Positions 3,071 to 32,000 of a stretch of DNA of 32,000 nucleotides are shown here, piece after piece; position 1 is the stretch's first letter, and every line of letters begins with the position of its first letter. The translations under genes were made by a program, and so were the position numbers. The notes under the pieces are model-generated. The model did not search any database and had not been told where the DNA came from. It saw only the letters and a list, made by a program, of their open reading frames with translations. The DNA is taken from contig OW818668.1 of NCBI GenBank assembly GCA_942493105.1, positions 1,710,001 through 1,742,000 on the forward strand, read 5' to 3'. This DNA is from an uncultured Erysipelotrichaceae bacterium (GTDB lineage: Bacteria; Bacillota_I; Bacilli_A; Erysipelotrichales; Erysipelotrichaceae).

Positions 3071-6028
<2,958 letters not shown>

Positions 6029-6053
6029 AAAGACCTGCTTTCAAAATACACTT

Positions 6054-8232: not shown

Positions 8233-9539
8233 AATTTTATGACTTGCGGAATTCAATGGATCTTTCCATTGGTGATTTCCTAAAAAACAGAGAACAAACA
8301 TCTTATGAATCTTATGAGAAAATCGTTGATTCTATTCTTTTGTCTATAAAAGAAAAAGGTAATGAAGCACTTATTGCTTTGACAGCCAAATATGACCAGG
8401 TGACTTTAACGCCTGAAACTCTTTGTGTAAGCGAAGATGAAATACGAGAAGCTTATACTTTAGTAGATGAAAATCTGATTCGAGTGATTCGTCGCGCCTA
8501 TGCTCAAATCTATCAATATCATGTTAAGCAAAAAACTTATTCATGGTTTGATACAGATACTTACGGTATCATGCAAGGTCAAAAAGTAACACCACTGGAT
8601 CGAATTGGAGTCTATGTTCCAGGAGGAACTGCTGTATATCCTTCGAGTGTGTTGATGAATGTTATTCCGGCGCAAGTGGCTGGTGTAGTTGAAATCATCA
8701 TGACAACCCCTATGCAAAAAAACGGAAAAGTTAATCCAGCGACCTTGGTCGCTGCCGATATTTGTGGAATCAAAGAAATCTATAAAGTAGGTGGAGCCCA
8801 AGCAATCGGTGCTCTGGCTTATGGAACTCAAACACTTCGTAAGGTAGATAAGATAGTTGGACCAGGCAACATTTATGTGGCTCTAGCGAAGAAGAAAGTC
8901 TATGGCTTGGTTAGCATTGATTCTATTGCGGGACCTTCAGAAATCTTGGTGATTGCCGATGATTCTGCACGACTTGATTATGTTGCGGCAGATCTATTAT
9001 CACAAGCTGAGCATGATGTACTTGCAAGTGCAGTCCTTATTACTACTGATGAAACCTTGGCTTTCTCGATTGAAGCAGAGCTTATCCGCCAAACCAAATT
9101 GCTTAGTCGATCTTCAATCATAAAACAATCTCTTGAAAACTATGGAGCCATCATTCTAGTCAAGACGCTTGAAGATGCTATTGATTTAACCAATCAAATA
9201 GCCCCAGAACATTTAGAAATCTGTACAAAAGAACCTGTTATGGTGATGAATAAAATCAAACATGCAGGTGCCATCTTTTTAGGAAATTATTCTCCTGAAC
9301 CATTGGGAGATTATATGGCAGGTCCAAATCACATTTTACCCACCAATGGTACTGCTAAGTTTTTCTCACCGTTGAGCGTCGAAGATTTCGTTAAAAAAAG
9401 CAGCATCATCTATTATAACGATCAAGCTTTATATGCCTTAAAAGATGACATTATTACCTTTGCGAATGCTGAAGAATTGACAGCTCATGCATCAGCCATT
9501 CAAATACGCTTTCCTAAAGAAAGTGAGGAAGTGATATGA
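8229..9539 (+). CDS. hisD: histidinol dehydrogenase
   Basis: 436 aa. [34 protein letters not shown] and APEHLE blocks are present. ATGA overlap with hisG. Confidence 0.95.
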
Positions 9540-10597: not shown

Positions 10598-11186
10598 GGT
10601 TCGTCAAGCAACAAAAGAACGTAAATCAAAAGAAACATCCATTCGTATATCCGTCAATCTAGATGGAACTGGTGTTTCAACAATCTCAACAGGCATAGGA
10701 TTTTTCGATCATATGCTCACCCTTTTATCAAAATACAGCTTTATTGATATGAGCATAGAGGCTCAAGGCGATCTGCAGATTGATTCACATCACACTGTTG
10801 AAGATGTTGCGATCGTGTTGGGTGATTGTCTTGATGAAGCTTTTAAAGATAAAGCAGGTATTAAAAGATATGGTTTCTTTGGGGTTCCAATGGATGAGAC
10901 TCTCGTTATCAGTACCATTGATTTATCCGGAAGACCTTATCTAAATTTCAATGCATCATTCACGACAGATCGACTAGGAACGATGGAATCAGAAATGATT
11001 GAAGAATTCTTTAGGACCCTTAGTGTTCGACTTAAAATGAATTGTCATATTGAAGTTCGCCAAGGTAAAAATAACCATCATATCGCAGAAGGAATATTTA
11101 AAGCCTTTGGGAAATCGTTAGATGAGGCAAAAACCATTGATCCAAGAATCAAAGAAGTGCTTTCCACAAAAGGGTTGTTAGACTAA
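10590..11186 (+). CDS. hisB: imidazoleglycerol-phosphate dehydratase (monofunctional; no phosphatase domain)
   Basis: 198 aa. GIGFFDHMLT, DSHHTVEDVAI and NNHHIAEGIFKAFG are present. 8-nt overlap with hisC. Confidence 0.95.
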   Translation: MNKVRQATKERKSKETSIRISVNLDGTGVSTISTGIGFFDHMLTLLSKYSFIDMSIEAQGDLQIDSHHTVEDVAIVLGDCLDEAFKDKAGIKRYGFFGVPMDETLVISTIDLSGRPYLNFNASFTTDRLGTMESEMIEEFFRTLSVRLKMNCHIEVRQGKNNHHIAEGIFKAFGKSLDEAKTIDPRIKEVLSTKGLLD

Positions 11187-11204
11187 AACAAAGGAGCTAC
11201 GAAG

Positions 11205-11804
11205 ATGATCGGTATTATTGACTATGGGATGGGGAATCTGAAAAGCGTATCCAATGCCCTAAATTTTCTAGGTGCACAACATTTTATAAGTGATGATTAT
11301 GATCTCCTCTTAACGGCTGACAAGCTCATATTGCCAGGCGTTGGTGCTTTTAAAGATGCCATCGATCTCATACGCAAAAAGAAATTCGATCAATTATTGA
11401 TAGAATCAAAGGCCCAAGGAAAACCGATATTGGGTATCTGTTTGGGTATGCAATTGCTTTTTGATACATCTACTGAATTCGGATTTCATCAAGGCCTTAG
11501 AATGCTGAAGGGACAGATTGTATTTATGGATGTGTCGTTGAAGGTTCCTCATATGGGATGGAATCGTTTAGATATTCATAAAGAATCCCCATTATTTGTT
11601 GGGTTACCTGAAAATAGCTATGTTTACTTCGTACATTCTTATCATTTAGAAACAACTGAAGATATTGTTTCAGCAACTACGAATTATGAAAAGGATATCC
11701 AAGTGGCGGTTCAGCAAGGAAATATATACGGCTTACAATTTCATCCTGAAAAGAGCGGTGATGTGGGTTTGAAGATCCTTAGAAATTTCATTGAATTGAG
11801 TTAG
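11205..11804 (+). CDS. hisH: imidazole glycerol phosphate synthase, glutaminase subunit
   Basis: 199 aa. IIDYGMGNL, LPGVGAF, the catalytic GICLGMQLL and FHPEKS are present. Confidence 0.95.
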   Translation: MIGIIDYGMGNLKSVSNALNFLGAQHFISDDYDLLLTADKLILPGVGAFKDAIDLIRKKKFDQLLIESKAQGKPILGICLGMQLLFDTSTEFGFHQGLRMLKGQIVFMDVSLKVPHMGWNRLDIHKESPLFVGLPENSYVYFVHSYHLETTEDIVSATTNYEKDIQVAVQQGNIYGLQFHPEKSGDVGLKILRNFIELS

Positions 11805-11813
11805 GAGACAAGT

Positions 11814-12539
11814 ATGCAACTATACCCTGCAATTGATATCAAGAATGGTAAATGTGTACGACTTTACAAGGGCTTGTTTAATCAAGAAACCATCTTTAGT
11901 GAGAGCCCTTTAGAGGTTGCAAAACAATGGGAACTAGATGGAGCGACTTATCTTCATATCATAGATTTAGATGGCGCACTCAACGGTGAATGGGTCAACA
12001 AAGCAGTATTTAGTGATATCTTAAAATCAGTAAAGATTCCTATACAAACAGGGGGTGGGATCAGAACCCTTGAAGATATTAAACAACGCCTAGAAATGGG
12101 CATAGATCGCGTCATAATAGGTACAATGGCCGTCAAGGATCCTGAATTTGTAAAAGAGGCCATCCAACACTTTGGTTCCGAACATATTGTGGTAGGTATC
12201 GATGCAAAAAACGGATGTGTTGCCACTCATGGTTGGGAGCAAGTTAGTACCCTTGAGGCAGCAGAATTTGCATTAGCCATGAAGCAGTTGGGCGTCAAGT
12301 ATATTATCTACACAGACATAAGCAAAGATGGAACGATGGAAGGTCCTAATATTGAGCAAACACAAAATCTGATAATTAAAACCGGAATGAACATCATTGC
12401 CTCGGGTGGTATTTCAAGCATAGACGATCTGTATGAAACTCAGAGAATTGGGGCAACAGGAACCATCATTGGTAAAGCTTTATATTTAAATGCGATCCAT
12501 CTTAAAGAAGCGATTAAGCTGTTTGAAAGAGGTGAATAA
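11814..12539 (+). CDS. hisA: ProFAR isomerase
   Basis: 241 aa. LYPAIDIKNGKCVRL, LHIIDLDGA and GGGIRT are present. Confidence 0.95.
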   Translation: MQLYPAIDIKNGKCVRLYKGLFNQETIFSESPLEVAKQWELDGATYLHIIDLDGALNGEWVNKAVFSDILKSVKIPIQTGGGIRTLEDIKQRLEMGIDRVIIGTMAVKDPEFVKEAIQHFGSEHIVVGIDAKNGCVATHGWEQVSTLEAAEFALAMKQLGVKYIIYTDISKDGTMEGPNIEQTQNLIIKTGMNIIASGGISSIDDLYETQRIGATGTIIGKALYLNAIHLKEAIKLFERGE

Positions 12540-13304
12540 ATGTTATCTAAACGAATTATTCCATGTTTGGATGTAGATAAAGGTCGTGTTGTAAAGGGTG
12601 TCCAATTTGTAGATCTGATCGATGCTGGTGATCCGGTAGAAGTTGCTAAAGCCTACAATAAAAGTCTGGCTGATGAGATCATCTTTCTGGATATTACTGC
12701 TTCTCATGAGCAACGTGGAACGATCCTTGATATCGTTAGAAAAACTGCTGCAGAAGTATTTATTCCCTTGACTGTAGGTGGTGGTATCAGAACCATTGAA
12801 GACATTCGAAATATACTGTTAGCAGGTGCAGATAAGGTATCAATCAATTCTGCTGCAATTGCACGACCAGCATTGATCAATGAAGCATCTCAACGATTTG
12901 GTTCACAATGTATCGTTGTTGCGATTGATGCCAAGTTCAATAAGGAACGTAAAAGTTGGGATGTATATTCTCATGGGGGAAGAAACAATCAAGCACTAGA
13001 TGCCATAGAATGGGCTATTGAAGCAGAAAAACGAGGTGCTGGAGAAATTCTTTTGACCAGTATGGATAAGGATGGGACAAAGTCTGGTTATGATAATGAA
13101 TTGATACGATGCGTAAGTGAAGCTGTAAGAATTCCTGTGATCGCAAGTGGTGGTGCTGGGACACTTGAACACTTCAAAGATGCAATAATCAAAGGTAAAG
13201 CAGATGCTGTTCTTGCTGCCTCCCTATTTCATTTCAAAGAGATCGACATAAAAGATCTAAAAAATTATTTGAATGATGAAAACATACCTGTTAGGTTGAA
13301 ATAA
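12540..13304 (+). CDS. hisF: imidazole glycerol phosphate synthase, cyclase subunit
   Basis: 254 aa. [16 protein letters not shown] and IASGGAG are present. The ATG abuts the hisA TAA. Confidence 0.95.
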
Positions 13305-13326
13305 CTTCACTAGAAAGGAGATGAAT

Positions 13327-14013
13327 ATGAAATTTAGCGATTTAGTACAGAATCAAGCAGGATTAATTCCTGTCATTACACAAGATTTTAAAACCAATGA
13401 AGTACTTATGTTGGCCTATATGAATGAGGAAGCATTTAATCAGACTCTAAGGACAAAGAAAGCAACCTACTTTAGTCGTTCCAGAAATACACTTTGGATT
13501 AAAGGTGAAGAATCAGGTCATTATCAACATGTGAAGTCAGTTTTCGTAGATTGTGATAATGACACATTATTATTAAAAGTTAAACAAGAAGGTGTTGCCT
13601 GTCATACAGGTGAAATGTCATGTTTCTTCAATGAAATTGAGTTGGCAGAACCTCTTTTAGAATCACAAGGTAATGAATCCATCGACTCATCCAAATCAAG
13701 CAATGAAAAAGACTATACATTAACAAGCTCAGTCACATCTAAAGTACTCGATGAAGTGTATCAAGTTGTATTGGATCGCAGAAAGAACCCTAAAGAAGGC
13801 TCCTACACCAATTATCTCTTTGACAAAGGAATTGATAAGATCCTTAAAAAAGTAGGTGAAGAAACAGCTGAAGTCATTATTGGGGCTAAAAATGAAGGCA
13901 GTGATGAGATTATCTATGAGATATCTGATTTATTGTATCATTTGACTGTTCTTTTGGTCGAAAAAGAAAGCACATGGGAATCTGTATATAAAGAACTGGC
14001 TAAACGTAGATAG
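13327..14013 (+). CDS. hisI: bifunctional phosphoribosyl-AMP cyclohydrolase / phosphoribosyl-ATP pyrophosphatase
   Basis: HisI half: LIPVITQD...WIKGEESGH...[11 protein letters not shown]...[10 protein letters not shown]. HisE half: [31 protein letters not shown]...[10 protein letters not shown] Ser-rich linker of about 35 aa separates the two halves. The track start at 13321 has GGAG directly abutting it; the ATG at 13327 has 6-nt spacing and is preferred. Confidence 0.9.
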
Positions 14014-18950: not shown

Positions 18951-19328
18951 TCAAGGAATTAGTCCAAGCTCGGAATCTTTATCTTTTCTTATTGATGAAA
19001 CTTGTTGAATAAATGAGATAAGATTAAGCAATATACAAGGAATCATAAGCAAACCAAAGAGTAATCCTATCATGGCACCTAGCAGATATAAAATCAAGGA
19101 TATCAGAGTCAACGAGCGATCATTGCGCTGATATGCAAACCATCCAAAGATCACCCCAACCCCTACGATGATACTACTGGGGATTAAGAAAATTGAAAAG
19201 ATCGCAGCGAATAATCCACCCATATCTTCACTGTTTTGAGTCCCTAATGCAATCAATACATAAAGTGCAAAACCGATATATAGTAGGGCTAAACAGGTGC
19301 TTATCACTAAAATTTTGTTTCTCTTCAT
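18951..19328 (-). CDS. small integral membrane protein, function unknown
   Basis: 125 aa. It is almost entirely hydrophobic, with 3-4 predicted TM segments by eye. GGAG RBS is present. It ends 30 nt upstream of the gnd start with no terminator between them. I recognise no family. Confidence 0.55.
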   Translation of the reverse strand: MKRNKILVISTCLALLYIGFALYVLIALGTQNSEDMGGLFAAIFSIFLIPSSIIVGVGVIFGWFAYQRNDRSLTLISLILYLLGAMIGLLFGLLMIPCILLNLISFIQQVSSIRKDKDSELGLIP

Positions 19329-19500: not shown

Positions 19501-20634
19501 TTAAGGTGCGACGTAAGGTTTGATGTCAGCGTATAAGGTAGGTTGAATCAAAACATAATTTCCAGCCTTCGTGCCTTTGAGTGTATACCCTTTAACGATG
19601 ATTTTTAGGTTTGTACCTGCTGTTTTCTGAACAAAGTTAAATGATGGTGATCCTCCCAAATAAACATCATCACCAACGAATACGCCTGATAATCTGGCTT
19701 TTCCAGAAATACTGGCTTTGGTTGTCCCATCATAGATTTTATCTCTGCCAGTGATCCCAACTACTGTCAATGTTTTCTTTGCGATCATGATCTCACCAAA
19801 AATAAATGTAAAGTCATAATTCTCTGCAGTTAAGGATCCAATTTCACCGATGATTTGAACAGGATTATAACTGACAGATAATCCTGCTGAATAAACACTG
19901 GTGATGCTTGGTGTTCCACTGACGACACTTAGGGTGTCGTTCATAAGGAAACCGGTGATCTCATAATCATAGGTACTGATGAAGTCTCCATAGGTCACAG
20001 ATTTATTGGCAATTTTAATGGTTAATAAGGCTTTGTTGACTGTGACATTGATTGAGGTCGTGATTGGTTTATAAGTTACTAGGTCATTTGGAGTAAATAT
20101 AACATTGGCTTTGGTGATCCCAGCTTTTGTAGGAACTAGGCTACTGTTTTCAAAAGCAAATGTTCCTGGAACATAGACACCATTAATCAATGCAATTCCT
20201 TCACCCAAAGTTGAGGATGATATTGACTGACCATATGTAATGGGTGTCGTGGTTGGCCACGTTACACTGATTCCCTTAATGGGACCAAATGCTGTGGTTT
20301 CACTTGTTCCGGCATAATCCTCTATCCCTTTAACAATGACTTTAAAATATTTACCGACATCCTCATTGGTCAGCATTAATGTTCTGGAAGTAGCCCCAGC
20401 AATTTCGACAAAGGTCCCATCAGGCAAAGTTGAAATGGTCCATTGATAACTGACAGTTGACTCTAAAGGTAATACACTGACTGCTAACTCTGTGCCTGTA
20501 TAGCCACTTCCGACAACTTGAACCAAACCGATTTTAGGTTTCTGAAGCAATATAAATGCAGCAACAGCTGAAACACAGATTAAAACCAAAATAGAAATCA
20601 CTATGTTGCGTTTTCTCGCCTTACTTAGATACAT
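19501..20634 (-). CDS. membrane-anchored surface protein with MBG (YGX-type) and YDG repeat domains
   Basis: 377 aa. N-terminal basic segment plus one TM (KARKRNIVISILVLICVSAVAAFILL). Repeated xTYG modules (ITYGQSISSSTL; VTYGDFISTYDYEITGFLMNDTLSVVSGTP) and a terminal KIYDGTTKASISG...GVFVGDDVYL module are present. These are typical of MBG/YDG adhesin-associated Ig-like repeats. Confidence 0.7.
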   Translation of the reverse strand: MYLSKARKRNIVISILVLICVSAVAAFILLQKPKIGLVQVVGSGYTGTELAVSVLPLESTVSYQWTISTLPDGTFVEIAGATSRTLMLTNEDVGKYFKVIVKGIEDYAGTSETTAFGPIKGISVTWPTTTPITYGQSISSSTLGEGIALINGVYVPGTFAFENSSLVPTKAGITKANVIFTPNDLVTYKPITTSINVTVNKALLTIKIANKSVTYGDFISTYDYEITGFLMNDTLSVVSGTPSITSVYSAGLSVSYNPVQIIGEIGSLTAENYDFTFIFGEIMIAKKTLTVVGITGRDKIYDGTTKASISGKARLSGVFVGDDVYLGGSPSFNFVQKTAGTNLKIIVKGYTLKGTKAGNYVLIQPTLYADIKPYVAP

Positions 20635-20808: not shown

Positions 20809-21663
20809 CTAGTGGTTTTCGATAAACTGAATCCCTAAACAATCAAGACCTGTATGAGAGGCAATGACAGCTGCTATATCATTGATATAGATCCTGGATG
20901 GCTCATAGCCCCTAGAAATCAGCATCGCTTTGGTTATTTCTGTACGAGGTGCTGCATGCGAATGTATGATATATATCGAACAAGATTTCCCATTAAAGGT
21001 TGAATGCAAGGTATCAATTGCTTCTTCCAAAGCTTTTCTTTCAGTTCTGACTTTCGCAAAAACATCTATTTTACCTTTAGTGGATGCATTAAGTTGTAAG
21101 ATTGGACGTATTTTAAACATCTCAGCTAAAGATGCAGCCAAAGGTGTTAAACGGCCCCCAACTTTCAAATGATCCAAGTCATTAGGCAGAATCAAAGTAT
21201 TGGCCCCTTTTATAACACGATTCAAAGTGTCTATGATTTCGACTTTTGGCTTGCCTTCGTTGATCAAAGTCTGAGTTAAAAGCGTCACATGCTTTTGAAT
21301 CATGCATGTAGAATAAACATCCACAAAAATAACTTCAAGCCCTACTTCTTCACCAGCCAAGAAGATTGATTGATGGGTACTGGAAAGACCTGCCGACAAT
21401 GGGGTCGCAATGACCGTATCAAAACCATCAGCTTTGATTTCTCGCATTAAATCTTCGATACTCATATACAGTGGTGTCGATGTTTTAGGATATTTTTTGT
21501 CGCTTAGCGCTTGATAAACATCTTGAGTGCTGATATCGAGTCCATCATGATAGGATTTCCCATCAATCAAAACAAGCAATGGTACCAAATAGATCCCCTT
21601 CTCTTTGGCTTCTTGTTGACTCAGTCCACTTCCTGAATCTGTCATAACAGCTATTTTACTCAT
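20809..21663 (-). CDS. DegV-family fatty-acid-binding protein
   Basis: 284 aa. The N-terminus KIAVMTDSGSGLS, YLVPLLVLIDGKSYHDGLDIS and TSTP are hallmarks of the DegV family. Confidence 0.85.
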   Translation of the reverse strand: MSKIAVMTDSGSGLSQQEAKEKGIYLVPLLVLIDGKSYHDGLDISTQDVYQALSDKKYPKTSTPLYMSIEDLMREIKADGFDTVIATPLSAGLSSTHQSIFLAGEEVGLEVIFVDVYSTCMIQKHVTLLTQTLINEGKPKVEIIDTLNRVIKGANTLILPNDLDHLKVGGRLTPLAASLAEMFKIRPILQLNASTKGKIDVFAKVRTERKALEEAIDTLHSTFNGKSCSIYIIHSHAAPRTEITKAMLISRGYEPSRIYINDIAAVIASHTGLDCLGIQFIENH

Positions 21664-21737
21664 ATATTCCCCTTTTTCTTACTAGTTCATTATACAACAT
21701 TGCCTTACTTTAAAATCTTGTAAAGCAACTATGATCA

Positions 21738-22580
21738 TTAAACACAACGATATGTACAACCATAAACCCATCCATCGATCGTGGGTTGAAGATCCAATTG
21801 TTGCCACGATCCTTTGATCCCACTTTCTTGCAGCATCAATTCAAAGTGACATTTCGCAATACCCAAATCATTGAGTTGCAGATCATAGCGTATCATTTCA
21901 CCATATCCTGGCGTTCTTTGAATATAGAAGTGAAAATCATCGCCAGCTTTCAATAATCGCCAAGGTTGTTTATTGCTGGCTGAAGGTCCCAATCGAACCA
22001 TCTCCAAAGCTGTTTCATATTTACCTAAATTTTCTTTTGATAATGGTGTCTTTGAATCATTCTCAAAAAACAACTCATCCCATGACTTCCTGTTGTTAGA
22101 TCCTGCTCCAAATCGCATGGCTGAATCCAATAAACTTCTTTTATCTTTAGCGAAGCCAATCGGTGAAACAATGGGTATGGTTTCATCTGTAGTCAGGGTT
22201 AAACTTTTTTCAAAATCACCTCGATTAAAAGTACCACCCAACCAACATGTGCTCAGTCCAAGTTCAGTCGCAAACAATACCAGTTTTTCAAACAAATAGC
22301 CCAACTCTAAGGGATCACCCTTTTGAATATCCTGAATTGCCACAATAAAGGTATGGGCACCAGACATAACTCCATAGGTTCCAAGCTTTACTTTAGAATT
22401 TCTGTCAGAATTCAAACTTGAAACCAAGGCAAATCTAATTTTTGATTTGGCTTCTTGGTTGAGTGTCTCTATTTTTTCTTCCACTTTTAAGATGGACTGA
22501 GCAGAAATAGGCAGTGAGTCGTAAGTCCTACACGATATTCTAGTTCTTATCAGATTTTCAATTTTGCTTGCTTTAGTCAT
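21738..22580 (-). CDS. nitroreductase-family protein
   Basis: 280 aa. The N-terminus IRTRISCRTYD and the later GPSASNKQPWR are nitroreductase-fold FMN-binding motifs. Substrate is unknown. Confidence 0.65.
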   Translation of the reverse strand: MTKASKIENLIRTRISCRTYDSLPISAQSILKVEEKIETLNQEAKSKIRFALVSSLNSDRNSKVKLGTYGVMSGAHTFIVAIQDIQKGDPLELGYLFEKLVLFATELGLSTCWLGGTFNRGDFEKSLTLTTDETIPIVSPIGFAKDKRSLLDSAMRFGAGSNNRKSWDELFFENDSKTPLSKENLGKYETALEMVRLGPSASNKQPWRLLKAGDDFHFYIQRTPGYGEMIRYDLQLNDLGIAKCHFELMLQESGIKGSWQQLDLQPTIDGWVYGCTYRCV

Positions 22581-22610
22581 AAATTCTCCTTGTTGATCCT
22601 ACTTATTTAT

Positions 22611-22638
22611 AAAAAGCAGACTAGTTGTAATCTGCTTT
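22611..22638 (-). terminator. rho-independent terminator after the DUF853 ATPase gene
   Basis: Minus strand: AAAGCAGA-ttacaactag-TCTGCTTT followed by TT. The 3' arm plus tail reads TCTGCTTTTT, a run of five Ts. It lies 6 nt after the stop. Confidence 0.7.
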
Positions 22639-22644
22639 AGGATG

Positions 22645-24171
22645 CTATTTTCTTAACAATGATCCAAAGATACCACGAGCAATTTCACGTCCTATAGACG
22701 AACTCATCGTTCCAACGAAAGACTTGGCCATTTTTTCAACCACAGTTACATTTTTCTTAGCGGTTCTTGCCTTTTCTTTATCAAGTTTCTCTTGTTCTTT
22801 ACGTAAACGTTCAGCTTCTTTATTTTGTTCTTTGACTTGTTTTTCATGAAGCTTAGCTTCTTCTACTAAACTTTTTTGCTCTTGTTGGGCATTCATTTTA
22901 GCTTTCAACAACTCATATGCCGATTCTTTATCAACGATTTGATTGTACTTGTAATAGAAAGGAGAATTTGTGATCAGTTCTTGACGTTTTTCAGGTGTAA
23001 TGGTTCCAATGATGCTGTGTGGGGGCAAAATCATAGCTCTCTCAACAACACCTGGTCTGCCTTCAGAATCCAGCATAGAAACCAAAGCTTCACCGGTTTT
23101 AAGTTCAGTGATGACACTAGGGATATCGATACTTGGGTTTTGTCTAAACGTTTCTGCCATCGCATTGATGGCTTTATTTTCTCGCGGTGTAAATGAACGC
23201 AGAGCGTGTTGGACACGATTACCCAATTGATTCAAAACTTTGTCTGGTATATCTATTGGATTTTGTGTTACAAAGTAAACACCTACGCCTTTAGATCTAA
23301 TCAATCTAACCACGAGTTCTATCTTATCTAGTAATGCTTTAGGAGCATCTGTGAAAAGCAAATGTGCTTCATCAAAGAAGAAGACCATTTTAGGTTTATC
23401 AAGATCTCCGACTTCTGGTAATTCTTCAAACAATTCAGAAAGCAACCACAATAGGAAGGTTGAATATAAAGCGGGTGCCATCATGAGTTTTTCTGAAGCC
23501 AAGACATTGATGATACCTTTACCATAAGGATCTACTTTCATTAAATCGTTGATGTCGAAAGCAGGTTCCGCAAAGAACTGATCTCCACCTTGATCTTCTA
23601 AGGTCAATAAAGCACGTTGAATTGAACCTACAGAAGGTTTAGCTAAATTTCCATATTCAGTTGTAAAATTATTCGCATTGTCTCCAACATACTGAACTAG
23701 ACTGCGAATATCTTTCAAATCGATTAAAAGCAAACCCATATCATCCGCAATCCTAAATATTATGGTCAATACCCCTGCCTGAACCTCATTAAGACCTAAG
23801 ATACGACTTAAAAGCAAAGGTCCGATCTCTGAGATGCTGGTCCGTAAAGGATGTCCCAACTCTCCAAAAACGTCCCATAAACGAACAGGATAGCTTCCGA
23901 ATTCAAAGGGTGCAAGATTTAATTTATCAATTCTTTCTTGAAGTTTAGGATTAATAATGCCTGGTTGAGCTAAAGAGGCAAGATCACCTTTTACATCAGA
24001 TAAGAAAACAGGAACACCTTGAGTGCTGAAATGTTCAGCCAACACTTTTAAGGTTATTGTTTTACCTGTCCCTGTAGCCCCAGCGATCAAACCATGTCGA
24101 TTGGCCATTTTTAAGTTAAAAAGTATATCCTTTTCGCCTCTTCCAACTAGAAATTGTGTTGATTGATCCAT
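22645..24171 (-). CDS. DUF853 / YjgR-type HerA-like P-loop ATPase
   Basis: The preferred start is MDQSTQFLVGRG (ATG 24169-24171, AGGAGGA RBS 5 nt upstream) rather than the track start 24198. Walker A is GATGTGKT and Walker B is VFFFDEAH. A Lys/Glu-rich coiled-coil tail ends in GIFGSLLRK, as in YjgR homologues. Confidence 0.8.
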   Translation of the reverse strand: MDQSTQFLVGRGEKDILFNLKMANRHGLIAGATGTGKTITLKVLAEHFSTQGVPVFLSDVKGDLASLAQPGIINPKLQERIDKLNLAPFEFGSYPVRLWDVFGELGHPLRTSISEIGPLLLSRILGLNEVQAGVLTIIFRIADDMGLLLIDLKDIRSLVQYVGDNANNFTTEYGNLAKPSVGSIQRALLTLEDQGGDQFFAEPAFDINDLMKVDPYGKGIINVLASEKLMMAPALYSTFLLWLLSELFEELPEVGDLDKPKMVFFFDEAHLLFTDAPKALLDKIELVVRLIRSKGVGVYFVTQNPIDIPDKVLNQLGNRVQHALRSFTPRENKAINAMAETFRQNPSIDIPSVITELKTGEALVSMLDSEGRPGVVERAMILPPHSIIGTITPEKRQELITNSPFYYKYNQIVDKESAYELLKAKMNAQQEQKSLVEEAKLHEKQVKEQNKEAERLRKEQEKLDKEKARTAKKNVTVVEKMAKSFVGTMSSSIGREIARGIFGSLLRK

Positions 24172-24307
24172 AAACTTCCTCCTGATCTCATTTCTCATAT
24201 TATAGTTCAGTGGTGCTTATAATACAAGAAACCACACTTTAATATTTGGACTTATGCTTAGTCAAGATGATACAATTAAACAAGATTTGAAGGGGTAAAG
24301 AATAAAC

Positions 24308-24829
24308 ATGAAAAAACAGTGGGCTTTTATTATAGCAATCATATTCTTAAGTGGCTGTCAATTCTCTAAGAAACCAAGTTTTAGTGCAGAATCCATCAAA
24401 ATCAATTCTTCCATTGAACAAATATCAGTCACTTTGAGCCGTTGTACAGATGGTGATACAGCTCATTTTATGATGGATGGAGATGATGTGAAAGTACGAT
24501 TCTTGTCGATAGATGCCCCTGAAATCGCCAATGATGATCATCCTAACCCTGAACCCTATGGAAACCAGGCACGTGATTATACCTGTAACCTACTGACCAA
24601 CGCAAAAACCATTACCATTCAAATGGATCCCTATGAAGATGATCACGATCAATATGATCGCCTATTGGCATGGATCTGGGTCGATGGACAACTTCTGCAA
24701 GCCAAATTGATTCAACAAGGCTATGCAGAAGTAAAGTATGTCAAACAGCCCAATCTTTATTCTAGTCAACTTTATCAGCTTCAAGATCTAATGAAAAATG
24801 AAAAAATAGGCATCTGGAAAAATAACTAG
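24308..24829 (+). CDS. lipoprotein thermonuclease (staphylococcal-nuclease fold)
   Basis: 173 aa. The signal peptide has the lipobox LSGC. SNase motifs CTDGDTAHF, VRFLSIDAPE and YDRLLAWIWVDG are present. Confidence 0.85.
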   Translation: MKKQWAFIIAIIFLSGCQFSKKPSFSAESIKINSSIEQISVTLSRCTDGDTAHFMMDGDDVKVRFLSIDAPEIANDDHPNPEPYGNQARDYTCNLLTNAKTITIQMDPYEDDHDQYDRLLAWIWVDGQLLQAKLIQQGYAEVKYVKQPNLYSSQLYQLQDLMKNEKIGIWKNN

Positions 24830-24834
24830 TTATA

Positions 24835-24864
24835 AAAAGCACTTTTGATAAAGTGCTTTTTTGT
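24835..24864. terminator. bidirectional rho-independent terminator between the nuclease gene and the glutamate mutase operon
   Basis: AAAAGCACTTT-tgat-AAAGTGCTTTT, with a T-run on the plus side (TTTTTTGTTT) and on the minus side (TTTTTATAAC). Confidence 0.8.
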
Positions 24865-25182
24865 TTAATAATCAAATTCGAGATCTAATAAAGGGGCGTG
24901 TTGTTGAGCACCATAAACATCGGTTTCACGGATATCTCCACTGCACATCGGTCTGATGATGGTGGCTTTTATGGCATTAGCAGGAACAAATTCAACGATG
25001 GTAATAACATCTTCAACTTTGATTTTATACAAAGATGCTATGAGTTCAGCGTTGATGCATTTGTGTTTGACTAAGGCATCAAAGGTTGCTTTGTCTTTTA
25101 GGATAATGTCAAAGGTGATCTCGTATGGTCCTGAATTCTTAGAACGGATGACTTTGGCGATATCGATCAGTTTATGTTTCAT
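24865..25182 (-). CDS. DUF4387-like small protein (C-terminal module of AtuA-type proteins)
   Basis: The preferred start is MKHKLIDIAKVIRSKNSGPYEITFDIIL (ATG 25180-25182, AAGGAG 6 nt upstream), giving 105 aa. The track start 25245 would overlap the upstream gene by 53 nt. Family assignment is from memory of the DUF1446/DUF4387 gene pairing and is not verified. Confidence 0.6.
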   Translation of the reverse strand: MKHKLIDIAKVIRSKNSGPYEITFDIILKDKATFDALVKHKCINAELIASLYKIKVEDVITIVEFVPANAIKATIIRPMCSGDIRETDVYGAQQHAPLLDLEFDY

Positions 25183-25192
25183 GAGTGGCTCC

Positions 25193-26545
25193 TTACACAT
25201 TGACCATGGTTTGTTTGAATATACCCACTGGATCTGTGATTTCAATCAAATGATACAGACTAAAATTATAAACAGCTCCTACTTTAAAATCGCTTGGTGA
25301 ATATGGAAAGGCAAGATTGCCTGCTGTTGCGATACGTCCTTCATAGCCATAATGAAGCATCGTACTTCTGGCAAAACTACAAATTGTGTTTGCCACATCT
25401 TGTGTTTTCGCGACCGCATCGATCACCACACAGAGCTCATGAGATTTGATGTCTTTGACAGGTTCAAGATCTCCCATGACCCCATTCTTCCCATAGATTT
25501 TGAAGTTGAGGTGATAGTTATCGAGATTCTTGAAGTTATCTTTGACTCTTTTTGTGACCCCATCTAGAATCGAATCAATTTCTTTGATGAAGATCGGATC
25601 ACGAACCCCAGCGATACTCACAGTTCTAAATCCAACGCATTTGGCAGCTTCTAGTTTGATCGTATAAGGATTTGCCGGAATGAATTTGCTTCCTCTTACT
25701 TCAACTTGATTTTCGTTGAGTTGAGTAAAAGTAGTTTGATGAAGATCGATGGTTCCGCCTGGTCCTGGCAAGATATAAGGATTTGTCTTTTCGTATAAAG
25801 TATGGGCACTGACACTCAAAGTCGTACATTTGCGAGCTGGATTTAAGGTTTCTAAGACAAAACGATCTTCATAGATGGTTCCAAACATACAATCACTTCC
25901 ACTGCCTGGTGCTGAAGCAATGGCTGCACATTCAAGTATTTTACCCATATGCAGTGCCAGACCTTGATCAAAACCACGAATGATCGGTAAAGCTGCAAAC
26001 ATATTGGGATCATAAGAGCGTCCCGCAATAATGACCTGAGCACCATCATTCAGAGCCTTTATGAAAGGCTCAACTCCCATTTGACCCACAATATGAGTCG
26101 ATTCTAAAATGTCTTCTCTGGTACATTCTGGGGCTGGATGAAGGGGTTTGACTTTGCCTTCTTCAAAAGCTTTTAAGACATATTCTTTATCGAAATCAGC
26201 CTCGATCACAGCCATTTTAAAGTGCAGATGATGTTCCTTAGCGATTTCATATACGATCTGAAGTTGCCAATCCAGATGAGGTTTGGCTCCGCTTCCTCCG
26301 GCACTGCCTACTAATACTGGAATATTATGTTCGATCCCGGCTTCAATCATGATGGCCAAGTCGCGTTTCACGGCGAAATAATCGGTAAAAGAAACACCTG
26401 CTCCTAAATAATAAGGCCCTGGATCCGTAGAACCAGCATCTACTGCGATACAGTCCGGTTTCAGTTTCATCCCTTCTTCAAAACTGGACATTGGGAAACC
26501 ATAACCTAAGATCGCTGTCGTAGAAAGAACTTTAACGCATTTCAT
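25193..26545 (-). CDS. DUF1446 / AtuA-family protein (acyclic-terpene-utilisation AtuA N-terminal module), function unknown
   Basis: 450 aa. VLSTTAILGYGFP...AVDAGSTDPGPYYLG...VGSAGGSG resembles DUF1446 as I recall it. The start overlaps the mal stop by 14 nt. Confidence 0.65.
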   Translation of the reverse strand: MKCVKVLSTTAILGYGFPMSSFEEGMKLKPDCIAVDAGSTDPGPYYLGAGVSFTDYFAVKRDLAIMIEAGIEHNIPVLVGSAGGSGAKPHLDWQLQIVYEIAKEHHLHFKMAVIEADFDKEYVLKAFEEGKVKPLHPAPECTREDILESTHIVGQMGVEPFIKALNDGAQVIIAGRSYDPNMFAALPIIRGFDQGLALHMGKILECAAIASAPGSGSDCMFGTIYEDRFVLETLNPARKCTTLSVSAHTLYEKTNPYILPGPGGTIDLHQTTFTQLNENQVEVRGSKFIPANPYTIKLEAAKCVGFRTVSIAGVRDPIFIKEIDSILDGVTKRVKDNFKNLDNYHLNFKIYGKNGVMGDLEPVKDIKSHELCVVIDAVAKTQDVANTICSFARSTMLHYGYEGRIATAGNLAFPYSPSDFKVGAVYNFSLYHLIEITDPVGIFKQTMVNV

Positions 26546-27797
26546 GAGTTGTCTTGCCTTTCATCGCTTGATTAAGCGCGATTATTCTTTGCATTTCATT
26601 GTAGACGATCATATACCCTTCATCGACTCCCATGCCTGGTTTTGCCAAGATCTGTACGGGATGTGTAGCCATTGCGATATGGACGCAGGTCTTGGCGCTG
26701 ATGTCTGTTTCATTACAGGTACCGCCTTGATATGCTCCAATACCTTTCTGATTACAATAAAGCACTGCTTCGATCGTATTTTGAATTCCGCCTAAATCAG
26801 GCGTCTTGATTTGAACCATATGACCTGCTTTGTTGTCAGCGAAATAGATGATGTCTTCCAACGTATTGCACCATTCATCAGCTACGATTTCTACATCGAT
26901 GTGACGTCGATCAAGCACTTCAGTGATGGCTTTAAGACCCAGCATGGTCAACTCACGATCGTCAAAATCGACAGGTCCTTCAATTCGCAAATGATAAGGA
27001 CCACTGGCTTCACGCAACAACTTCATATAATCAGCCATGGCTTCATAATCGGTTTTAAAGATGATCCCAAAAGTACCATAAACATCGATATGAAATACAG
27101 GCATATAGTCCTCTTGGCTCTTAAAAGTATCGACTCGATGACGCAACCATTTGACATATTCTAAGAGTTTTTCACCTTGATAACCTAATTTAGCAGCCAC
27201 ATTATTGATGAGTGCATGCGGCATGACAGCTGATCCTTTGATGATCATTTTATCGACATTGTCATAACGATTATCACCACTTTGACTAAAGATCGGAATC
27301 AGTTTGTCACTAACTTGAGTACCGTATTCTAAGGCAACGATATTGGCCATTTGGGTATGGTGTGCTTTTGCGACCGCATCTAGTAAAGCTTGGGTGATCC
27401 CATAACGTAAGGCTGTATGAATTCTTTTGCCTTCATGATGATAGTTATCAAATTCATGTGCTAATGTTTTAAAAGATTTAAGCTCTCTGCCTAAGAGTAA
27501 AGGTTTAAGCTCTTGTTGAACGATGAGTTCAAATTCTTGAGCTAAGAAGAGAGGATCTCTTCCTCCGCAGCCGCTGTATTGAACGGCACAGCAATCTCCA
27601 TAAGCAACTTGACCATCCTCAAGAACCAACATGATGGTTAAAGATTCCCCTGCTTGACGGATGCGGGTGAAGCCTGGCGTGATGGGGTCTCCCACATAGA
27701 AATTGCCTTCTGATTTAGCGCCTTGTTTAATCGCTTTTTGATCATCAAAGAAGAAACCGGTTCTGCCTTGACTTGTGACTACATCGATTATTTTCAT
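26532..27797 (-). CDS. mal: 3-methylaspartate ammonia-lyase (methylaspartase)
   Basis: The conserved N-terminus is MKIIDVVTSQGRTGFFFDDQKAI (ATG 27795-27797). VLEDGQVAYGDCCAVQYSGCGGRDPLF, RYDNVDKMIIK, HLRIEGP, VQIKTPDLGG and GGTCNET are near-identical blocks to Clostridium tetanomorphum MAL as I remember it. Confidence 0.95.
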   Translation of the reverse strand: MKIIDVVTSQGRTGFFFDDQKAIKQGAKSEGNFYVGDPITPGFTRIRQAGESLTIMLVLEDGQVAYGDCCAVQYSGCGGRDPLFLAQEFELIVQQELKPLLLGRELKSFKTLAHEFDNYHHEGKRIHTALRYGITQALLDAVAKAHHTQMANIVALEYGTQVSDKLIPIFSQSGDNRYDNVDKMIIKGSAVMPHALINNVAAKLGYQGEKLLEYVKWLRHRVDTFKSQEDYMPVFHIDVYGTFGIIFKTDYEAMADYMKLLREASGPYHLRIEGPVDFDDRELTMLGLKAITEVLDRRHIDVEIVADEWCNTLEDIIYFADNKAGHMVQIKTPDLGGIQNTIEAVLYCNQKGIGAYQGGTCNETDISAKTCVHIAMATHPVQILAKPGMGVDEGYMIVYNEMQRIIALNQAMKGKTTHEMR

Positions 27798-27804
27798 AGT
27801 GTCC

Positions 27805-29250
27805 CTATCTTGGTCGTCCGACCAATTGTCCTTTACTGACCGCATAAATATCATCAATTACCATTTGGAAACTGACATCACGGCGTTCTGTTTCTGCCCG
27901 TTCTTTTAGTTTCTGACGATGAAATGCTTTTAGTGTTTCATCAAAAGGTAAGTTCCCAAAGTCAAGGAATCTTACAGCCCCATGATTGTCTCTGGCCGGT
28001 AATGCCTTGTTGGCATTACATTGTGCCGGAGCAAACGGAACATCGATCAGACCAGCCTCAAATCCACGCAAAGCACTTAATCCAAAATCATTGTTTCCAA
28101 GTTTCAAGACAGCTTCCATGATACAACGGGTTTCAGCTTCAATGATTTTCATTTCTTCTAAAATCATCGGACTTTCAATAGCCACTTGATCTTTAAGCAT
28201 GGCCGTCAATTGTTTGGTGGCTTTTAAACCATTAGAATTGGCTTCTGCGGTAGGTACTCCAAAGGCTTCATGAGGAGATTTAACGATGACTTTTGTGGCA
28301 CCAGCCAGAACGGCTGTTGCGGCACCCCAAGCAATAACGGCATAAGCCTTAGCTTCATCTTGAGGAAAGCCTCCCATCCATTGATGAAAGACCGTTGTAA
28401 TACGGACATCTGTATATCCAAAACGATCTAGATAGGCTTTGGTTAGCTTTTCGAGGGTCTTTATGGCTGCGATATCCTGAATTTGATTCCCACATTGGCC
28501 ATACCCAACTGTAATGCATTTACAGCCCTGTTGAGCTGCCAACAATGCTTCTAAGATCGCAACTGAATGAGAAATACATGGGGGAACTAACGTTCCTGTC
28601 AAAGGCCCAAAGGGTTCACGATTGATTCTGATGCCTTGTTCTTCGTAATAACCGACCAAGCGATCAACATATTGCCAATCTGTGATGGTCTTTTCAAGTG
28701 AATTGTTTTTACCATAAGGAATATTATAAGAAATCCCTCCACCTTCAAAGGATGTAAACCCACCAGCCAAAGTGATTTCAGCTAAAAGTCTGGCATCGGG
28801 TGTTCCATGACGAACCTGAACCGGAACATCCAAATATTCTACGACATCTCTACAAACAGAAACGCCATGATTGACAGCCGGAAAGCCATTGAGTAAGGAC
28901 TTTCCGATTCGGATACTTTCATCAATACCTGTTTGAGCTTCAACATAACGATTATGCCGCGTATAACTATCGATGGTCGTCGGCAAAAGATCAGCCCCAC
29001 CTTCATCTTGAAGCGTTTTCAGAAGTTTCTTGAGTTCATTAGGTAAGGCAACTCCAGCTCTTGGTTGAACCAAAGTAACCTTATCTTCAACTGCTTGACT
29101 TAAACGAGCACTAAACCTTTTTTCAGCTTTGATTGTTTTTTGATAAGCAACCGCTTCTTCAAGATTCACTTCTTTGCCTGTGATCCATTGATTGAGTACT
29201 TCTTGACGCAAAGCCAAGAAGGTTTCTAATGGCATCTTTTGATTGATCAT
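27805..29250 (-). CDS. glmE: glutamate mutase epsilon (catalytic) subunit
   Basis: 481 aa. [62 protein letters not shown] and [23 protein letters not shown] match clostridial GlmE/MutE. ATGA overlap with glmL. Confidence 0.95.
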
Positions 29251-30602
29251 ACGATTTTCTCCATGTTTCTTTTAAGTAAGCGAACCACAGTATCAGGATG
29301 GCGCGATGCCAACAAACCTAAACAACTGACCACATAGTGAGCATCAAGAACATATTCCAGTTTATTTGGACATAAAATCTCGGGATGTTCCGTTTTAGAT
29401 AAGGCATTCTTTAAGATTGACAAAGGATCCTGTGAATGTATTAATGGACCACCGATCCCAATCATGATTAGCACATCACGCAAGTCTTTTCCGGATTGAT
29501 AATAACTGACTCCCATTGGAGAATACGACGTCTCTAACCGTCCTGCATGTCTTTGTGTGGCAATATCCGTACACCAACTGGCTAAAATGGTATCTTTATC
29601 AGGATCAATGTCACAGTGGATATTGTCTTGAATCTGTTGAAGATAATCTCTCATTTCTTGATCACATTCAGGTTCATCTTTTTTTAAATCAGCAACATTA
29701 TGCGCACTGAATCGAACGCCTAGATCCCCTTCTACACTGCGTTTATCCAAAGGTTCCCTAAGACCTTTATATCCGACATTGTCTTTCAAAACAAAATGAG
29801 CATTCATACTATAGACATCCGTGGTTGCTCCACCAATATCAATGGCCATTAAATCGCCTATTCCAGGTTCATTAACTGTCCCTTTTGAAAGTAACTTTAG
29901 GGCTTCCATAACACTCATAGGGGTAGGCAAGACGATGTCATCGATGACAGAACTTAATTCAGATAAACCTTTTGCCTTAACGATGGTTTTAAGGAATAAT
30001 TCACGGATCAATTCACGACATTGATCCACCTGTAAGATCCCATACGTCGGCATCACATTTTCACACATGAGATAATCAATTTTAGCATTCTTAAAGATGG
30101 CAGCTATTTCATCTTGACACGACTTGTTTCCGGCATAAATCACTGGAAAGTTTGGAGATAAGGTCGCAATCATTTTAGCGTTATGAATCACCACATCAGA
30201 ATTGCCGCCATCTGTACCACCGCAAAGTAATAATATGTCACACTGAGCATTTTCAAGTTCTTTGAGTTCACGTTGATTCAGTTCAAATGAATATGAACCG
30301 ATAACTTTAGCACCAGCACTATAACACGCCAAAGTCGCAGCTTTTAGGGTCAAATCAGGCACCAAACCAATCGCAATCATCTTCAATCCACCTTTAGCTG
30401 AACTGCAAACTAAGGTTTGATCAATAGAAACATTATCTAAGATGTTCGCCATTTTATGTTTGACCCGTTCAAGTCCTATGGCGATATCTGTTGTTGCCGT
30501 TGTCAGATCACTGGCACTGGCTAATATTTCGTCACTTTGGGTATCAACAATACAACCTTTGGTATATGTCGATCCCACATCAAATAAAAGATAGGTCGGC
30601 AT
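29247..30602 (-). CDS. glmL: glutamate mutase accessory protein GlmL/MutL (ASKHA-fold putative reactivase/chaperone)
   Basis: 451 aa. The N-terminus [12 protein letters not shown] (phosphate-1 motif) and [11 protein letters not shown] (phosphate-2 motif) are present. Its position between glmS and glmE matches clostridia. Confidence 0.85.
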
Positions 30603-31019
30603 TTAGGCAGTGATCCCCAAATCATGTTTCAGATCTTCAATACCCTGATTGATGTCACTTCCAGGTGGATATACCCGATTAAATCCCATTGCAATATATT
30701 TCTCTTCTACAGGTTTAAAATCAGATTTGCCTATGACTAAATTACCGCCAACATACAATAAAACATCAGATAACCCAGCTTCTTTACAATAGTCACCAAA
30801 ACCTCGACAATCCAATTCTCCTTGTCCATATAAACTGGATACAAAAATAGCTCTCGCATTGGTTTCGATTGCAGCATCTACAAACTCCTTTTGTGAAACC
30901 ATGACACCTAAATTGACCACATTGAATCCAGCATGATCAAGTGCAAATTCAATGATACGATTTCCTACAGCATGGACATCGGCTCCAATGACCCCGATTA
31001 CAACCGTTACTTTTTCCAT
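30603..31019 (-). CDS. glmS: glutamate mutase sigma (B12-binding) subunit
   Basis: 138 aa. The base-off/His-on cobalamin motif DxHxxG (ADVHAVGN) is present, along with [15 protein letters not shown] and GFNRVYPPG. The match to C. tetanomorphum MutS is close. Confidence 0.95.
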
Positions 31020-31028
31020 GAACGCTCC

Positions 31029-31949
31029 TTAATCACCAAAGTGATTGATTTTATGAATATCTTGAATTGCATCTGATGAAACCATGCCTACCAACTCAAA
31101 ACATTGCTTCTGTGGATCAAAAACAAAATCATCCAAGAGATGGAAATTTTCAATTTGTTTGGTGGAATTCACATGAGTTCGAGGGCCAGTACAGTATTGG
31201 ATGATTTCACTTCCAATTTTGATATGTGTTGGATCCAAATAGCTGATGATCAAGTCTTGCTGAATAAGTGATTTGACTTTCTTTTCCAGGACACCTAAAG
31301 AAACTCTCGGTTTTTTATTGAAAGATAAGATGAATCCATGTTTAACATCCCCATGTCCATCACATAAAACTTGATACTCACTCTCTAAGATATGAACCAA
31401 TAAATCCTCAGCACTGTGAGCCATCCTCCGATATAACAACGATTTATACACCGTATTTTTGATGTCTGAAGGTTCAGGTCCAAATAAATTGGGTCGGGCT
31501 ACGATCACTTCTTCTCCTATCCCAATTAAAATATCTCCATTAATTCCCAGTTGTTCATAAACAGAATCAAAATGTTCGACGATCACACGTCTTTTTTCAC
31601 TCAATGCAGCCTTGATTGCATCGATCAACTCATAAGCTTGAGAGAAAGCCAATTCAAATCTCAAATCGATATGATAAGTATGCGCAATGAATTTGTGTTT
31701 TGAATGATCACGCATCAAAGGTGCAGGTCGTGTATTGATTCCATCATCATCGTTGGTCAATTCAAGACCGGGAAACATCCCTTTGATTAAAAGTGACTTG
31801 CCGCTTCCTGCATCGCCGATGATGCCGATCAATTTATCGGTCGGCAACAGATACATCTGTGAGATTTGATTCCCTAGATTTTGCATACGCTGACTTCCTC
31901 TAGGGGCAAAAAAGGTGGCATATCTTAATTGTTCAATACTTGGGCTCAT
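31029..31949 (-). CDS. uncharacterised P-loop NTPase with tRNA_SAD-like C-terminal half
   Basis: 306 aa. AAGGAG RBS (31958-31963) lies 8 nt upstream. Walker A is GIIGDAGSGKS (31794-31817) and a candidate Walker B is RRVIVEHFD. The C-terminal half contains AHSAEDLL and YCTGPRTHV (31170-31196), reminiscent of the HxxxH and CxGxH zinc motifs of the ThrRS/AlaRS second additional domain. It ends 9 nt upstream of glmS. Confidence 0.6.
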   Translation of the reverse strand: MSPSIEQLRYATFFAPRGSQRMQNLGNQISQMYLLPTDKLIGIIGDAGSGKSLLIKGMFPGLELTNDDDGINTRPAPLMRDHSKHKFIAHTYHIDLRFELAFSQAYELIDAIKAALSEKRRVIVEHFDSVYEQLGINGDILIGIGEEVIVARPNLFGPEPSDIKNTVYKSLLYRRMAHSAEDLLVHILESEYQVLCDGHGDVKHGFILSFNKKPRVSLGVLEKKVKSLIQQDLIISYLDPTHIKIGSEIIQYCTGPRTHVNSTKQIENFHLLDDFVFDPQKQCFELVGMVSSDAIQDIHKINHFGD

Positions 31950-32000
31950 GGATTAAACTCCTTAAGTTGATTTAGATAACGAAAAAACAAGAATGTTCTT

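Follow-up and report, generated by a model that had tools for sequence, protein, structure and literature searches.

How a bacterium might ferment glutamate by the methylaspartate route when two of the necessary enzymes appear to be missing is the question raised by a seven-gene operon of an uncultured Erysipelotrichaceae bacterium (assembly GCA_942493105.1, contig OW818668.1, positions 1,710,001 to 1,742,000; this stretch of 32,000 nucleotides (nt) is referred to here as the window). The methylaspartate pathway is a textbook B12 pathway that has been studied since the 1960s. The original prediction, made from the sequence of the window, described glutamate mutase and methylaspartase genes bracketed by families without an assigned function, found neither a mesaconase nor a citramalate lyase, and proposed a variant pathway in which the outer genes supply the missing chemistry or some kind of maintenance. 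As judged from its sequence, the locus is instead one of the known methylaspartate clusters, of the type carrying the citramalate lyase CmlAB, in an Erysipelotrichaceae-like Firmicute. We consider it highly likely that this route of glutamate fermentation is complete and that the locus is its main operon, with the first gene, which encodes a P-loop protein, as a conserved accessory.

The seven genes are minus-strand open reading frames (ORFs), tightly packed over 24865–31949. Read 5' to 3', the spacings between them are 9, 0, -4, 7, -14 and 10 nt, where negative values are overlaps and the first of these is ATGA. The operon includes neither a transporter nor a regulator gene. The features of the locus are:

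31029–31949, minus strand: P-loop gene (TsaE-like plus AlaX-like, 306 amino acids (aa)); no above-threshold family in Pfam or NCBIfam, folds from AlphaFold and Foldseek
30603–31019, minus strand: glmS (mutS), predicted cobalamin-binding small subunit of glutamate mutase; NF002612, TIGR01501
29247–30602, minus strand: glmL (mutL), predicted accessory/reactivating protein of glutamate mutase; NF040745, Pfam MutL
27805–29250, minus strand: glmE (mutE), predicted catalytic subunit of glutamate mutase; TIGR01503
26532–27797, minus strand: mal, predicted methylaspartate ammonia-lyase, ATG start; TIGR01502, Pfam MAAL_N and MAAL_C
25193–26545, minus strand: cmlA, predicted large subunit of a citramalate lyase independent of coenzyme A and acyl carrier protein (ACP), AtuA/DUF1446 family; PDB 9ERQ/9EVF chain A
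24865–25182, minus strand: cmlB, predicted small subunit of citramalate lyase (DUF4387), ATG start; PDB 9ERQ/9EVF chain B
31958–31963, minus strand: putative ribosome-binding site AAGGAG of the P-loop gene, 8 nt 5' of the ATG; position kept in the alignment of relatives
31982–32000, minus strand: 3' arm and T-tail of a leader hairpin (terminator- or attenuator-like), with the 5' arm past the window end; identical to the relative L004
24834–24861, both strands: predicted bidirectional intrinsic terminator hairpin where cmlB and a SNase-like gene converge; 12-bp stem

For mal and cmlB, longer ORFs initiated by TTG extend upstream. The ATG starts at 27797 and 25182 were chosen in their place, as the family models or the PDB chain align from residue 1–2.

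The four central proteins all exceed their NCBIfam equivalog cut-offs and are identified on this basis as glutamate mutase (GlmS and GlmE, with GlmL) and methylaspartate ammonia-lyase (Mal). GlmS scores 210 bits with NF002612 (cut-off 110) and 186 bits with TIGR01501 (cut-off 136), GlmL 541.6 bits with NF040745 (cut-off 475) and 477.6 bits with Pfam MutL, and GlmE 732 bits with TIGR01503 (cut-off 390). Mal reaches 572 bits with TIGR01502 (cut-off 286), its residues 2–410 aligning from model position 1, and both Pfam domains, MAAL_N and MAAL_C, are matched. The DxHxxG cobalamin motif is present in the GlmS translation as DVHAVG (D14-V-H16-A-V-G19). In these respects the original prediction was accurate: the coordinates of the genes and their spacing of -14 to +10 nt were reproduced exactly, and the motif and the identity of the core were confirmed.

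The last two genes give a different picture. By homology, the DUF1446 and DUF4387 genes are identified as encoding the two-subunit citramalate lyase CmlAB, so the lyase thought to be missing is encoded in the window. The 450-aa AtuA/DUF1446 protein aligns with chain A of PDB entries 9ERQ and 9EVF (phmmer E = 9.6e-170, residues 3–440 on 4–440) and the 105-aa DUF4387 protein with chain B (E = 2.3e-27, residues 1–105 on 1–105), chains that were named by their depositors "Citramalate lyase, subunit A (cmlA)" and "subunit B (cmlB)". Besides these full-length alignments, the pair shares with the solved enzyme its gene sizes and setting, i.e., adjacent genes for an AtuA-family protein of ~450 aa and a DUF4387 protein of ~105 aa, 10 nt apart and directly after mal. 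The host lineages differ, the pair of the window being that of an Erysipelotrichaceae-like Firmicute, in which the lyase activity is a prediction. Pfam scores are 132.9 bits for DUF4387 and 79.8 bits for AtuA (PF07287), the latter match being split into two stretches. AtuA of the acyclic terpene utilisation pathway of Pseudomonas belongs to the same Pfam family, but in the window there are no atu genes around cmlA, a DUF4387 partner is present and the Pfam match is modest. No NCBIfam model matches CmlA or CmlB, and their RefSeq names are still "AtuA family" and "DUF4387". It is because these annotations lag that both proteins were taken to be unassigned, a view that holds for the first gene of the operon but not for the last two.

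Background on this enzyme comes from a 2026 preprint in which Cml of Raoultella planticola, expressed as cmlAB, is used and described as an enzyme that cleaves citramalate directly to pyruvate and acetate (bioRxiv 10.64898/2026.01.16.699985); the cmlAB used in that preprint was a gift of the Berg laboratory. For Enterobacteriaceae and Dictyoglomus, the presence of a DUF1446 gene downstream of mal had already been remarked upon in 2015, when it was not yet clear what becomes of citramalate in E. coli and citramalate was reported not to be cleaved by the citrate lyase of that organism (Kronen & Berg 2015, PMC4682846). The E. coli O157:H7-type cluster of the Enterobacteriaceae has the same glmS-glmL-glmE-mal-AtuA(DUF1446)-DUF4387 order as the window and an associated class I fumarase-type mesaconase (PMC4682846), so what had been suggested to be a variant is a known arrangement. 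On an annotated E. coli chromosome, gltP, fumD (class I fumarate hydratase) and cobO follow, so that the AtuA/DUF4387 pair occurs alongside a mesaconase and is no substitute for one. The orthologues of the E. coli cluster are 59% identical to CmlA and 45% identical to CmlB of the window. The two types differ in that the E. coli type has gltP-fumD-cobO after cmlB, a single fused fumD and no P-loop/AlaX-like gene, while the window locus has a terminator after cmlB, a P-loop gene preceding glmS and, to judge by its relatives, a two-subunit MesAB placed upstream with malic enzyme.

With the classical clostridial cluster (Clostridium tetanomorphum/C. tetani) the locus shares glmS/glmL/glmE (mutS/L/E), mal and, through its relatives, the two-subunit MesAB, but the clostridial lyase is the ACP-dependent CitDEF, with CitC and CitXG, in place of which the window carries CmlAB. 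Many CitDEF-type clusters of Firmicutes resemble the window in having the P-loop gene. In a neighbourhood census in which the identities of CitD/E/F/C/XG were checked against NCBIfam, the 80 loci seeded with the P-loop protein included 28 glm/mal loci with CmlAB, 16 with CitDEF and none with both; the two lyases were likewise never together in the 80 loci seeded with Mal (160 loci in all). Pairs of DUF1446/AtuA-family and DUF4387 genes downstream of mal should be annotated as citramalate lyase CmlAB. Read in this way, reconstructions of the methylaspartate pathway that now seem to lack a step, in Erysipelotrichaceae, in Enterobacteriaceae and in many Clostridia, are completed.

The mesaconase is a separate matter. 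There is no gene for a class I fumarase or CitDEF in the 32-kb window, as judged from the ORF list and a Pfam scan of the large ORFs, and to this extent the reported absence of a mesaconase stands. The picture changes when close relatives are considered. L004, an Erysipelotrichaceae metagenome-assembled genome, provides the best match to the P-loop protein among GTDB representatives (93% aa identity) and is collinear with window positions 21036–32000 (84% nt identity over 10,978 nt, through the last base of the window), the operon proteins being 86–97% identical. Its P-loop gene is immediately preceded, on that strand, by mesA (class I fumarase alpha; NF004885, 395 bits), mesB (beta; NF005310, 273 bits) and malic enzyme. 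The order mesA-mesB-malic enzyme-P-loop gene-glmS-glmL-glmE-mal-cmlA-cmlB recurs, as far as the length of each contig allows it to be read, in eight further relatives (L003, L005, L006, L008, L011, L012, L013 and L014) and on metagenome contig L087. The "absence" of a mesaconase is thus very probably an effect of the window edge, and from the analogy with these relatives we are strongly confident that mesAB follows here, immediately beyond position 32000. The original prediction had itself cautioned that further operon members might lie beyond that point, a caveat that proved justified, and calling an enzyme missing at the edge of a window is an unsafe inference. Canonical mesaconase genes immediately upstream were also named in the original prediction as evidence that would speak against it, and this is largely the situation in the relatives, where a spacer containing a promoter-like box and a leader hairpin lies between the mesAB-malic enzyme genes and the P-loop gene. 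Malic enzyme (SfcA) is also among the genes in the cluster figure of Kronen & Berg (Fig. 4 legend, PMC4682846). Upstream of mesA in L004 there is, in addition, a divergent gene for a flavocytochrome c/fumarate reductase-like flavoprotein (5434–6858, minus strand; TIGR01813, 408 bits).

The predicted pathway would begin with GlmS and GlmE, an adenosylcobalamin-dependent pair kept active by GlmL, converting L-glutamate to (2S,3S)-3-methylaspartate, from which Mal would form mesaconate with the release of ammonia. MesAB, a class I fumarase-type mesaconase very probably encoded with malic enzyme past position 32000, would turn mesaconate into (S)-citramalate, and CmlA with CmlB would cleave this directly to pyruvate and acetate. 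Outer genes of the operon would therefore indeed supply missing chemistry, as had been supposed, but the chemistry in question would be citramalate cleavage, which is already assigned.

The first gene is another matter. Neither the literature nor the libraries that were searched assign it a function, and its product is modelled as a TsaE-like ATPase domain joined to an AlaX-like domain. In family searches it remains below the cut-offs for TsaE (Pfam PF02367, 20.3 bits against 26.6; TIGR00150, 20.2 bits against 60.1) and for tRNA_SAD (PF07973, 15.3 bits against 24). Such sub-threshold matches recur among its aligned homologues, to TsaE in 30 of 30 and to tRNA_SAD, at residues ~243–272, in 26 of 30. 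The AlphaFold model has a predicted local distance difference test score (pLDDT) of 84.7, and in Foldseek its N-terminal P-loop domain matches TsaE/YjeE structures (1fl9, 1htw and 6n9a) and its C-terminal domain matches AlaX and the editing domains of AlaRS and ThrRS (3kew, 2zzg, 1v7o and 1qf6), with E-values from 6e-6 to 7e-4. It is because the model matches both kinds of structure that the protein appears to be a fusion of the two. The Walker A motif, GDAGSGKS (residues 45–52), is invariant, as are EHF125-127, H178, E181, H199, D201, H242 and C253-TGPR-x-H259 (including R257). The canonical zinc motif of AlaX is HxxxH...CxxxH, whereas the P-loop protein has H178-T-A-E-D182 and C253-x5-H259. 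The C-terminal domain, as modelled, probably binds a metal. The protein thus resembles TsaE/YjeE (the t6A ATPase) and the AlaX/AlaRS editing domain in its folds, in its Walker A motif and in an H...C...H pattern within the tRNA_SAD region, but differs from them in not reaching the family cut-offs, in the spacing of its motifs and in a context that is metabolic and not one of tRNA modification.

The family itself is highly conserved. It has 3726 matches in the collection clustered at 90%, whereas a profile search covering 1.84 billion representatives clustered at 50% gave only 328, most of them fragments, and no distant annotated relatives; identity exceeds 50% throughout the family. Two of the matches listed in that search (P0215, 577 aa, and P0147, 289 aa) join a C-terminal part of the P-loop family to an unrelated domain, CotH or Mob_Pre, and probably reflect chimeras of assembly or gene calling and not true fusions. 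A G-protein chaperone of B12 mutases, of the MeaB/ArgK type, was considered and rejected, there being no such family among the Pfam, NCBIfam or PDB sequence matches or among the 50 Foldseek matches shown. No paper in the literature searched connects a protein of the TsaE/AlaX type with glutamate mutase, and neither there nor in the libraries searched is a TsaE-AlaX fusion described.

Genomic context offers more clues. Where loci seeded with the P-loop protein have at least 8 kb on both sides, glm, mal, cml or mes genes lie within 10 kb in 37 of 39; where loci seeded with Mal have at least 6 kb on both sides, the P-loop gene is present in 20 of 30 and, if Mes, Cit or Cml is required as well, in 19 of 22. 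These counts serve only as an indication, since the metagenome loci overlap in part in what they represent. Both censuses agree with the original expectation that the flanking genes co-occur with glm and mal. The immediate neighbours of the P-loop gene are cmlB (20 loci), glmS (12), mal (12), cobO (9), citXG (9), citD (8) and glmL (2). In Erysipelotrichaceae loci it lies between malic enzyme and glmS; in other loci, mostly of the class Clostridia, it lies after cmlB (before cobO where this is present), between mal and citD or between citC and citXG, and in two loci between cmlB and glmL. Since it is found with either lyase type, CmlAB or CitDEF, its link would be to a step common to both types, whether that of Mal, of MesAB or of glutamate mutase with its cofactor. 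A role in maintaining glutamate mutase or the cobalamin cycle comes into consideration because the gene adjoins glmS, glmL and cobO in different lineages. Our tentative proposal, to which we give somewhat less than an even chance, is that the fusion protein is a dedicated component of the pathway in Firmicutes, either an ATP-driven maintenance factor of glutamate mutase or of its cobalamin cycle or a UbK-like kinase regulating a pathway enzyme. Our best guess, made with low confidence, is that the protein depends on ATP and serves to maintain or regulate glutamate mutase or the cycle of its cofactor. Found in most complete Firmicutes clusters whichever lyase they contain, the P-loop/AlaX-like gene is the one real lead to come out of this locus, and a dedicated role, if true, would add a new player, with a maintenance or regulatory step, to glutamate mutase-based fermentation.

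Several points weigh against the reading of the locus as a complete CmlAB-type pathway with a conserved accessory. The assignment of function to CmlAB depends on the molecule names of the PDB entries and on one preprint that used the enzyme, and its activity in this organism is extrapolated from homology. Since only 51 nt of the window precede the P-loop gene, the presence of mesAB in this genome is deduced from its relatives. One of these, L010 (72% identity in the P-loop protein), has ndk and a surface-protein gene upstream and no mesAB in 3.1 kb, so the mesAB-upstream arrangement is not universal. Lastly, the P-loop gene is followed by rph and rdgB in 18 loci, 14 of them, mostly from Desulfosporosinus and unclassified Bacillota genomes, being without glm genes within 10 kb; the gene is therefore not strictly confined to the methylaspartate pathway.

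These rph-rdgB loci bear directly on the alternative that survives best, in which the P-loop/AlaX-like gene is a housekeeping bystander, for example related to tRNA or specifying a UbK-like kinase, and is not dedicated to glutamate fermentation. Such a view would also suit the resemblance of both of its domains, TsaE-like and AlaX-like, to tRNA-associated proteins, as well as the description of TsaE relatives as UbK kinases (PMC13241743). Against it, the gene lies inside the cluster at the varied positions given above, and because it is embedded at different positions in many lineages, a chance adjacency is unlikely. Its presence in 19 of the 22 complete Mal-seeded clusters and the mere 9 nt that separate it from glmS in the window point the same way. 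On balance we regard the bystander explanation as unlikely, though still a serious rival.

Another alternative is that the cluster serves mainly for the assimilation of mesaconate or citramalate, or provides methylaspartate for a natural product, and not for glutamate fermentation. Every step is reversible in principle, the lack of a transporter or regulator gene in the operon would be compatible with such a role, and glutamate mutase and methylaspartate also come up in papers on the biosynthesis of beta-amino-acid macrolactams. However, the catabolic set of glmSLE, mal, mesAB and cmlAB is kept as a block in anaerobic Firmicutes, and the scanned ORFs of the window include no nonribosomal peptide synthetase or polyketide synthase genes nearby, which makes this very improbable. 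Hardly credible, finally, is a variant pathway truly without mesaconase and citramalate lyase, in which the DUF1446 and DUF4387 proteins and the P-loop protein perform new chemistry on mesaconate: it has in its favour that the window holds no class I fumarase or CitDEF gene and that NCBIfam offers no model for either protein, but it is largely refuted by the match of the pair to the solved CmlAB, by its coexistence with FumD in E. coli and with MesAB in relatives, and by the position of MesAB directly upstream in the nearest of these.

Fermentation of glutamate through CmlAB being the favoured function, the question of how the operon is expressed can be approached from the spacer between malic enzyme and the P-loop gene. 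In nine relatives (L003–L006, L008 and L011–L014) this spacer is 143–208 nt long and has a common layout: a promoter-like box (AAATTGTGTnTT ... TGnTAnACT), then AAGGAG with a short ORF, and then a hairpin (AAACAAGA-loop-TCTTGTTTTTT) located 30–60 nt 5' of the AAGGAG from which the P-loop gene would be translated. The final 19 bases of the window (31982–32000), read on the minus strand as AAGAACATTCTTGTTTTTT, are identical to L004 9951–9969, where the full leader hairpin is AAAACAAGAAgaacaTTCTTGTTTTTT (spacer region 9826–10000). The A-run at 31982–31987, originally suspected to be the tail of an upstream terminator, is accordingly real, and corresponds to the minus-strand T-tail of this hairpin, whose 5' half is past the window end. 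The hairpin lies 3' of the promoter-like box, and a second promoter would hardly fit after it, so it is better seen as a leader terminator or attenuator than simply as the end of the upstream unit. From these sequence features, transcription of the seven genes, which would be co-transcribed, probably starts at a promoter in the spacer; it would then pass the leader hairpin, which may act as an attenuator of the operon. Leader-peptide attenuation was considered on account of the short ORFs that follow AAGGAG in several relatives, but rejected, as the peptides are not conserved. A cobalamin riboswitch, the other element that the original prediction had allowed for upstream, was not detected: in the window and in L004, where 10 kb upstream of the P-loop gene were covered, all Rfam families stayed below their gathering scores.

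At the other end of the operon, the predicted bidirectional terminator was recovered as a hairpin at 24834–24861, between cmlB and a convergent SNase-like gene (24308–24829, plus strand). It has a 12-bp stem, AAAAAGCACTTT-tgat-AAAGTGCTTTTT, flanked by an A-run and a T-run, and a folding energy of -12.8 kcal/mol (z = -3.7 versus shuffles), although the stem is A/T-rich with only 3 G-C pairs. It is the only notable hairpin, since terminator-like sites in the region are not enriched over shuffles (6 versus 5.1).

Other observations concern the surroundings of the P-loop gene in various lineages. A cobO-like gene for cob(I)yrinic acid a,c-diamide adenosyltransferase directly follows it in L027, L030, L032, L036, L043, L047–L049, L057, L099, L139 and L159, several of which are annotated as Oscillospiraceae or other Clostridia, and this may hint at a link to the cobalamin cofactor cycle. 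In a second type of context (L029, L033, L038–L041, L044, L045, L050, L054, L059, L064, L069, L075 and L083), an O-methyltransferase gene and a gene for an HGSNAT-like acyltransferase precede the P-loop gene, which stands at about 10001 where the locus is of full length, RNase PH and RdgB follow, and there is no glm or mal gene within 10 kb. In L021, L060, L077 and L079, glm or cml genes adjoin the rph-rdgB neighbourhood; L077 (8363–9799) and L079 (7409–8758) carry a lone GlmE-like gene (57% and 51% identity, respectively) directly upstream of P-loop-rph-rdgB, with no glmS, glmL or mal detected within 10 kb. In E. coli NZ_CP169399.1 (L001 15734–17180), two hypothetical genes (140 and 314 aa) lie upstream of glmS. 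The 314-aa protein was examined as a counterpart of the P-loop protein and rejected, as the two show no similarity.

A group of near-identical human-gut metagenome contigs (L095–L098 and L102–L110) yielded only glm genes and mal by tblastn. In seven of these mal is flanked by 6 kb or more on either side, and no MesAB, CitDEF, CmlAB or P-loop gene was found in the fetched flanks. In this group, the downstream steps would therefore be encoded elsewhere or be different.

The remaining large ORFs scanned in the window were found to have housekeeping domains or no Pfam match. They include queH/queA/tgt, bipA, a his operon, mutY, zwf, gnd and genes for a patatin, a DegV protein, a nitroreductase and a HerA-like ATPase. 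A 125-aa ORF without a Pfam match (18951–19328, minus strand) adjoins one for a 377-aa surface-protein-like protein with MBG and YDG domains (19501–20634, minus strand). The his genes, at 6331–14013 on the plus strand, form a nine-gene operon for histidine biosynthesis, an ordinary housekeeping unit in which the first gene is HisRS-like (hisZ-type).

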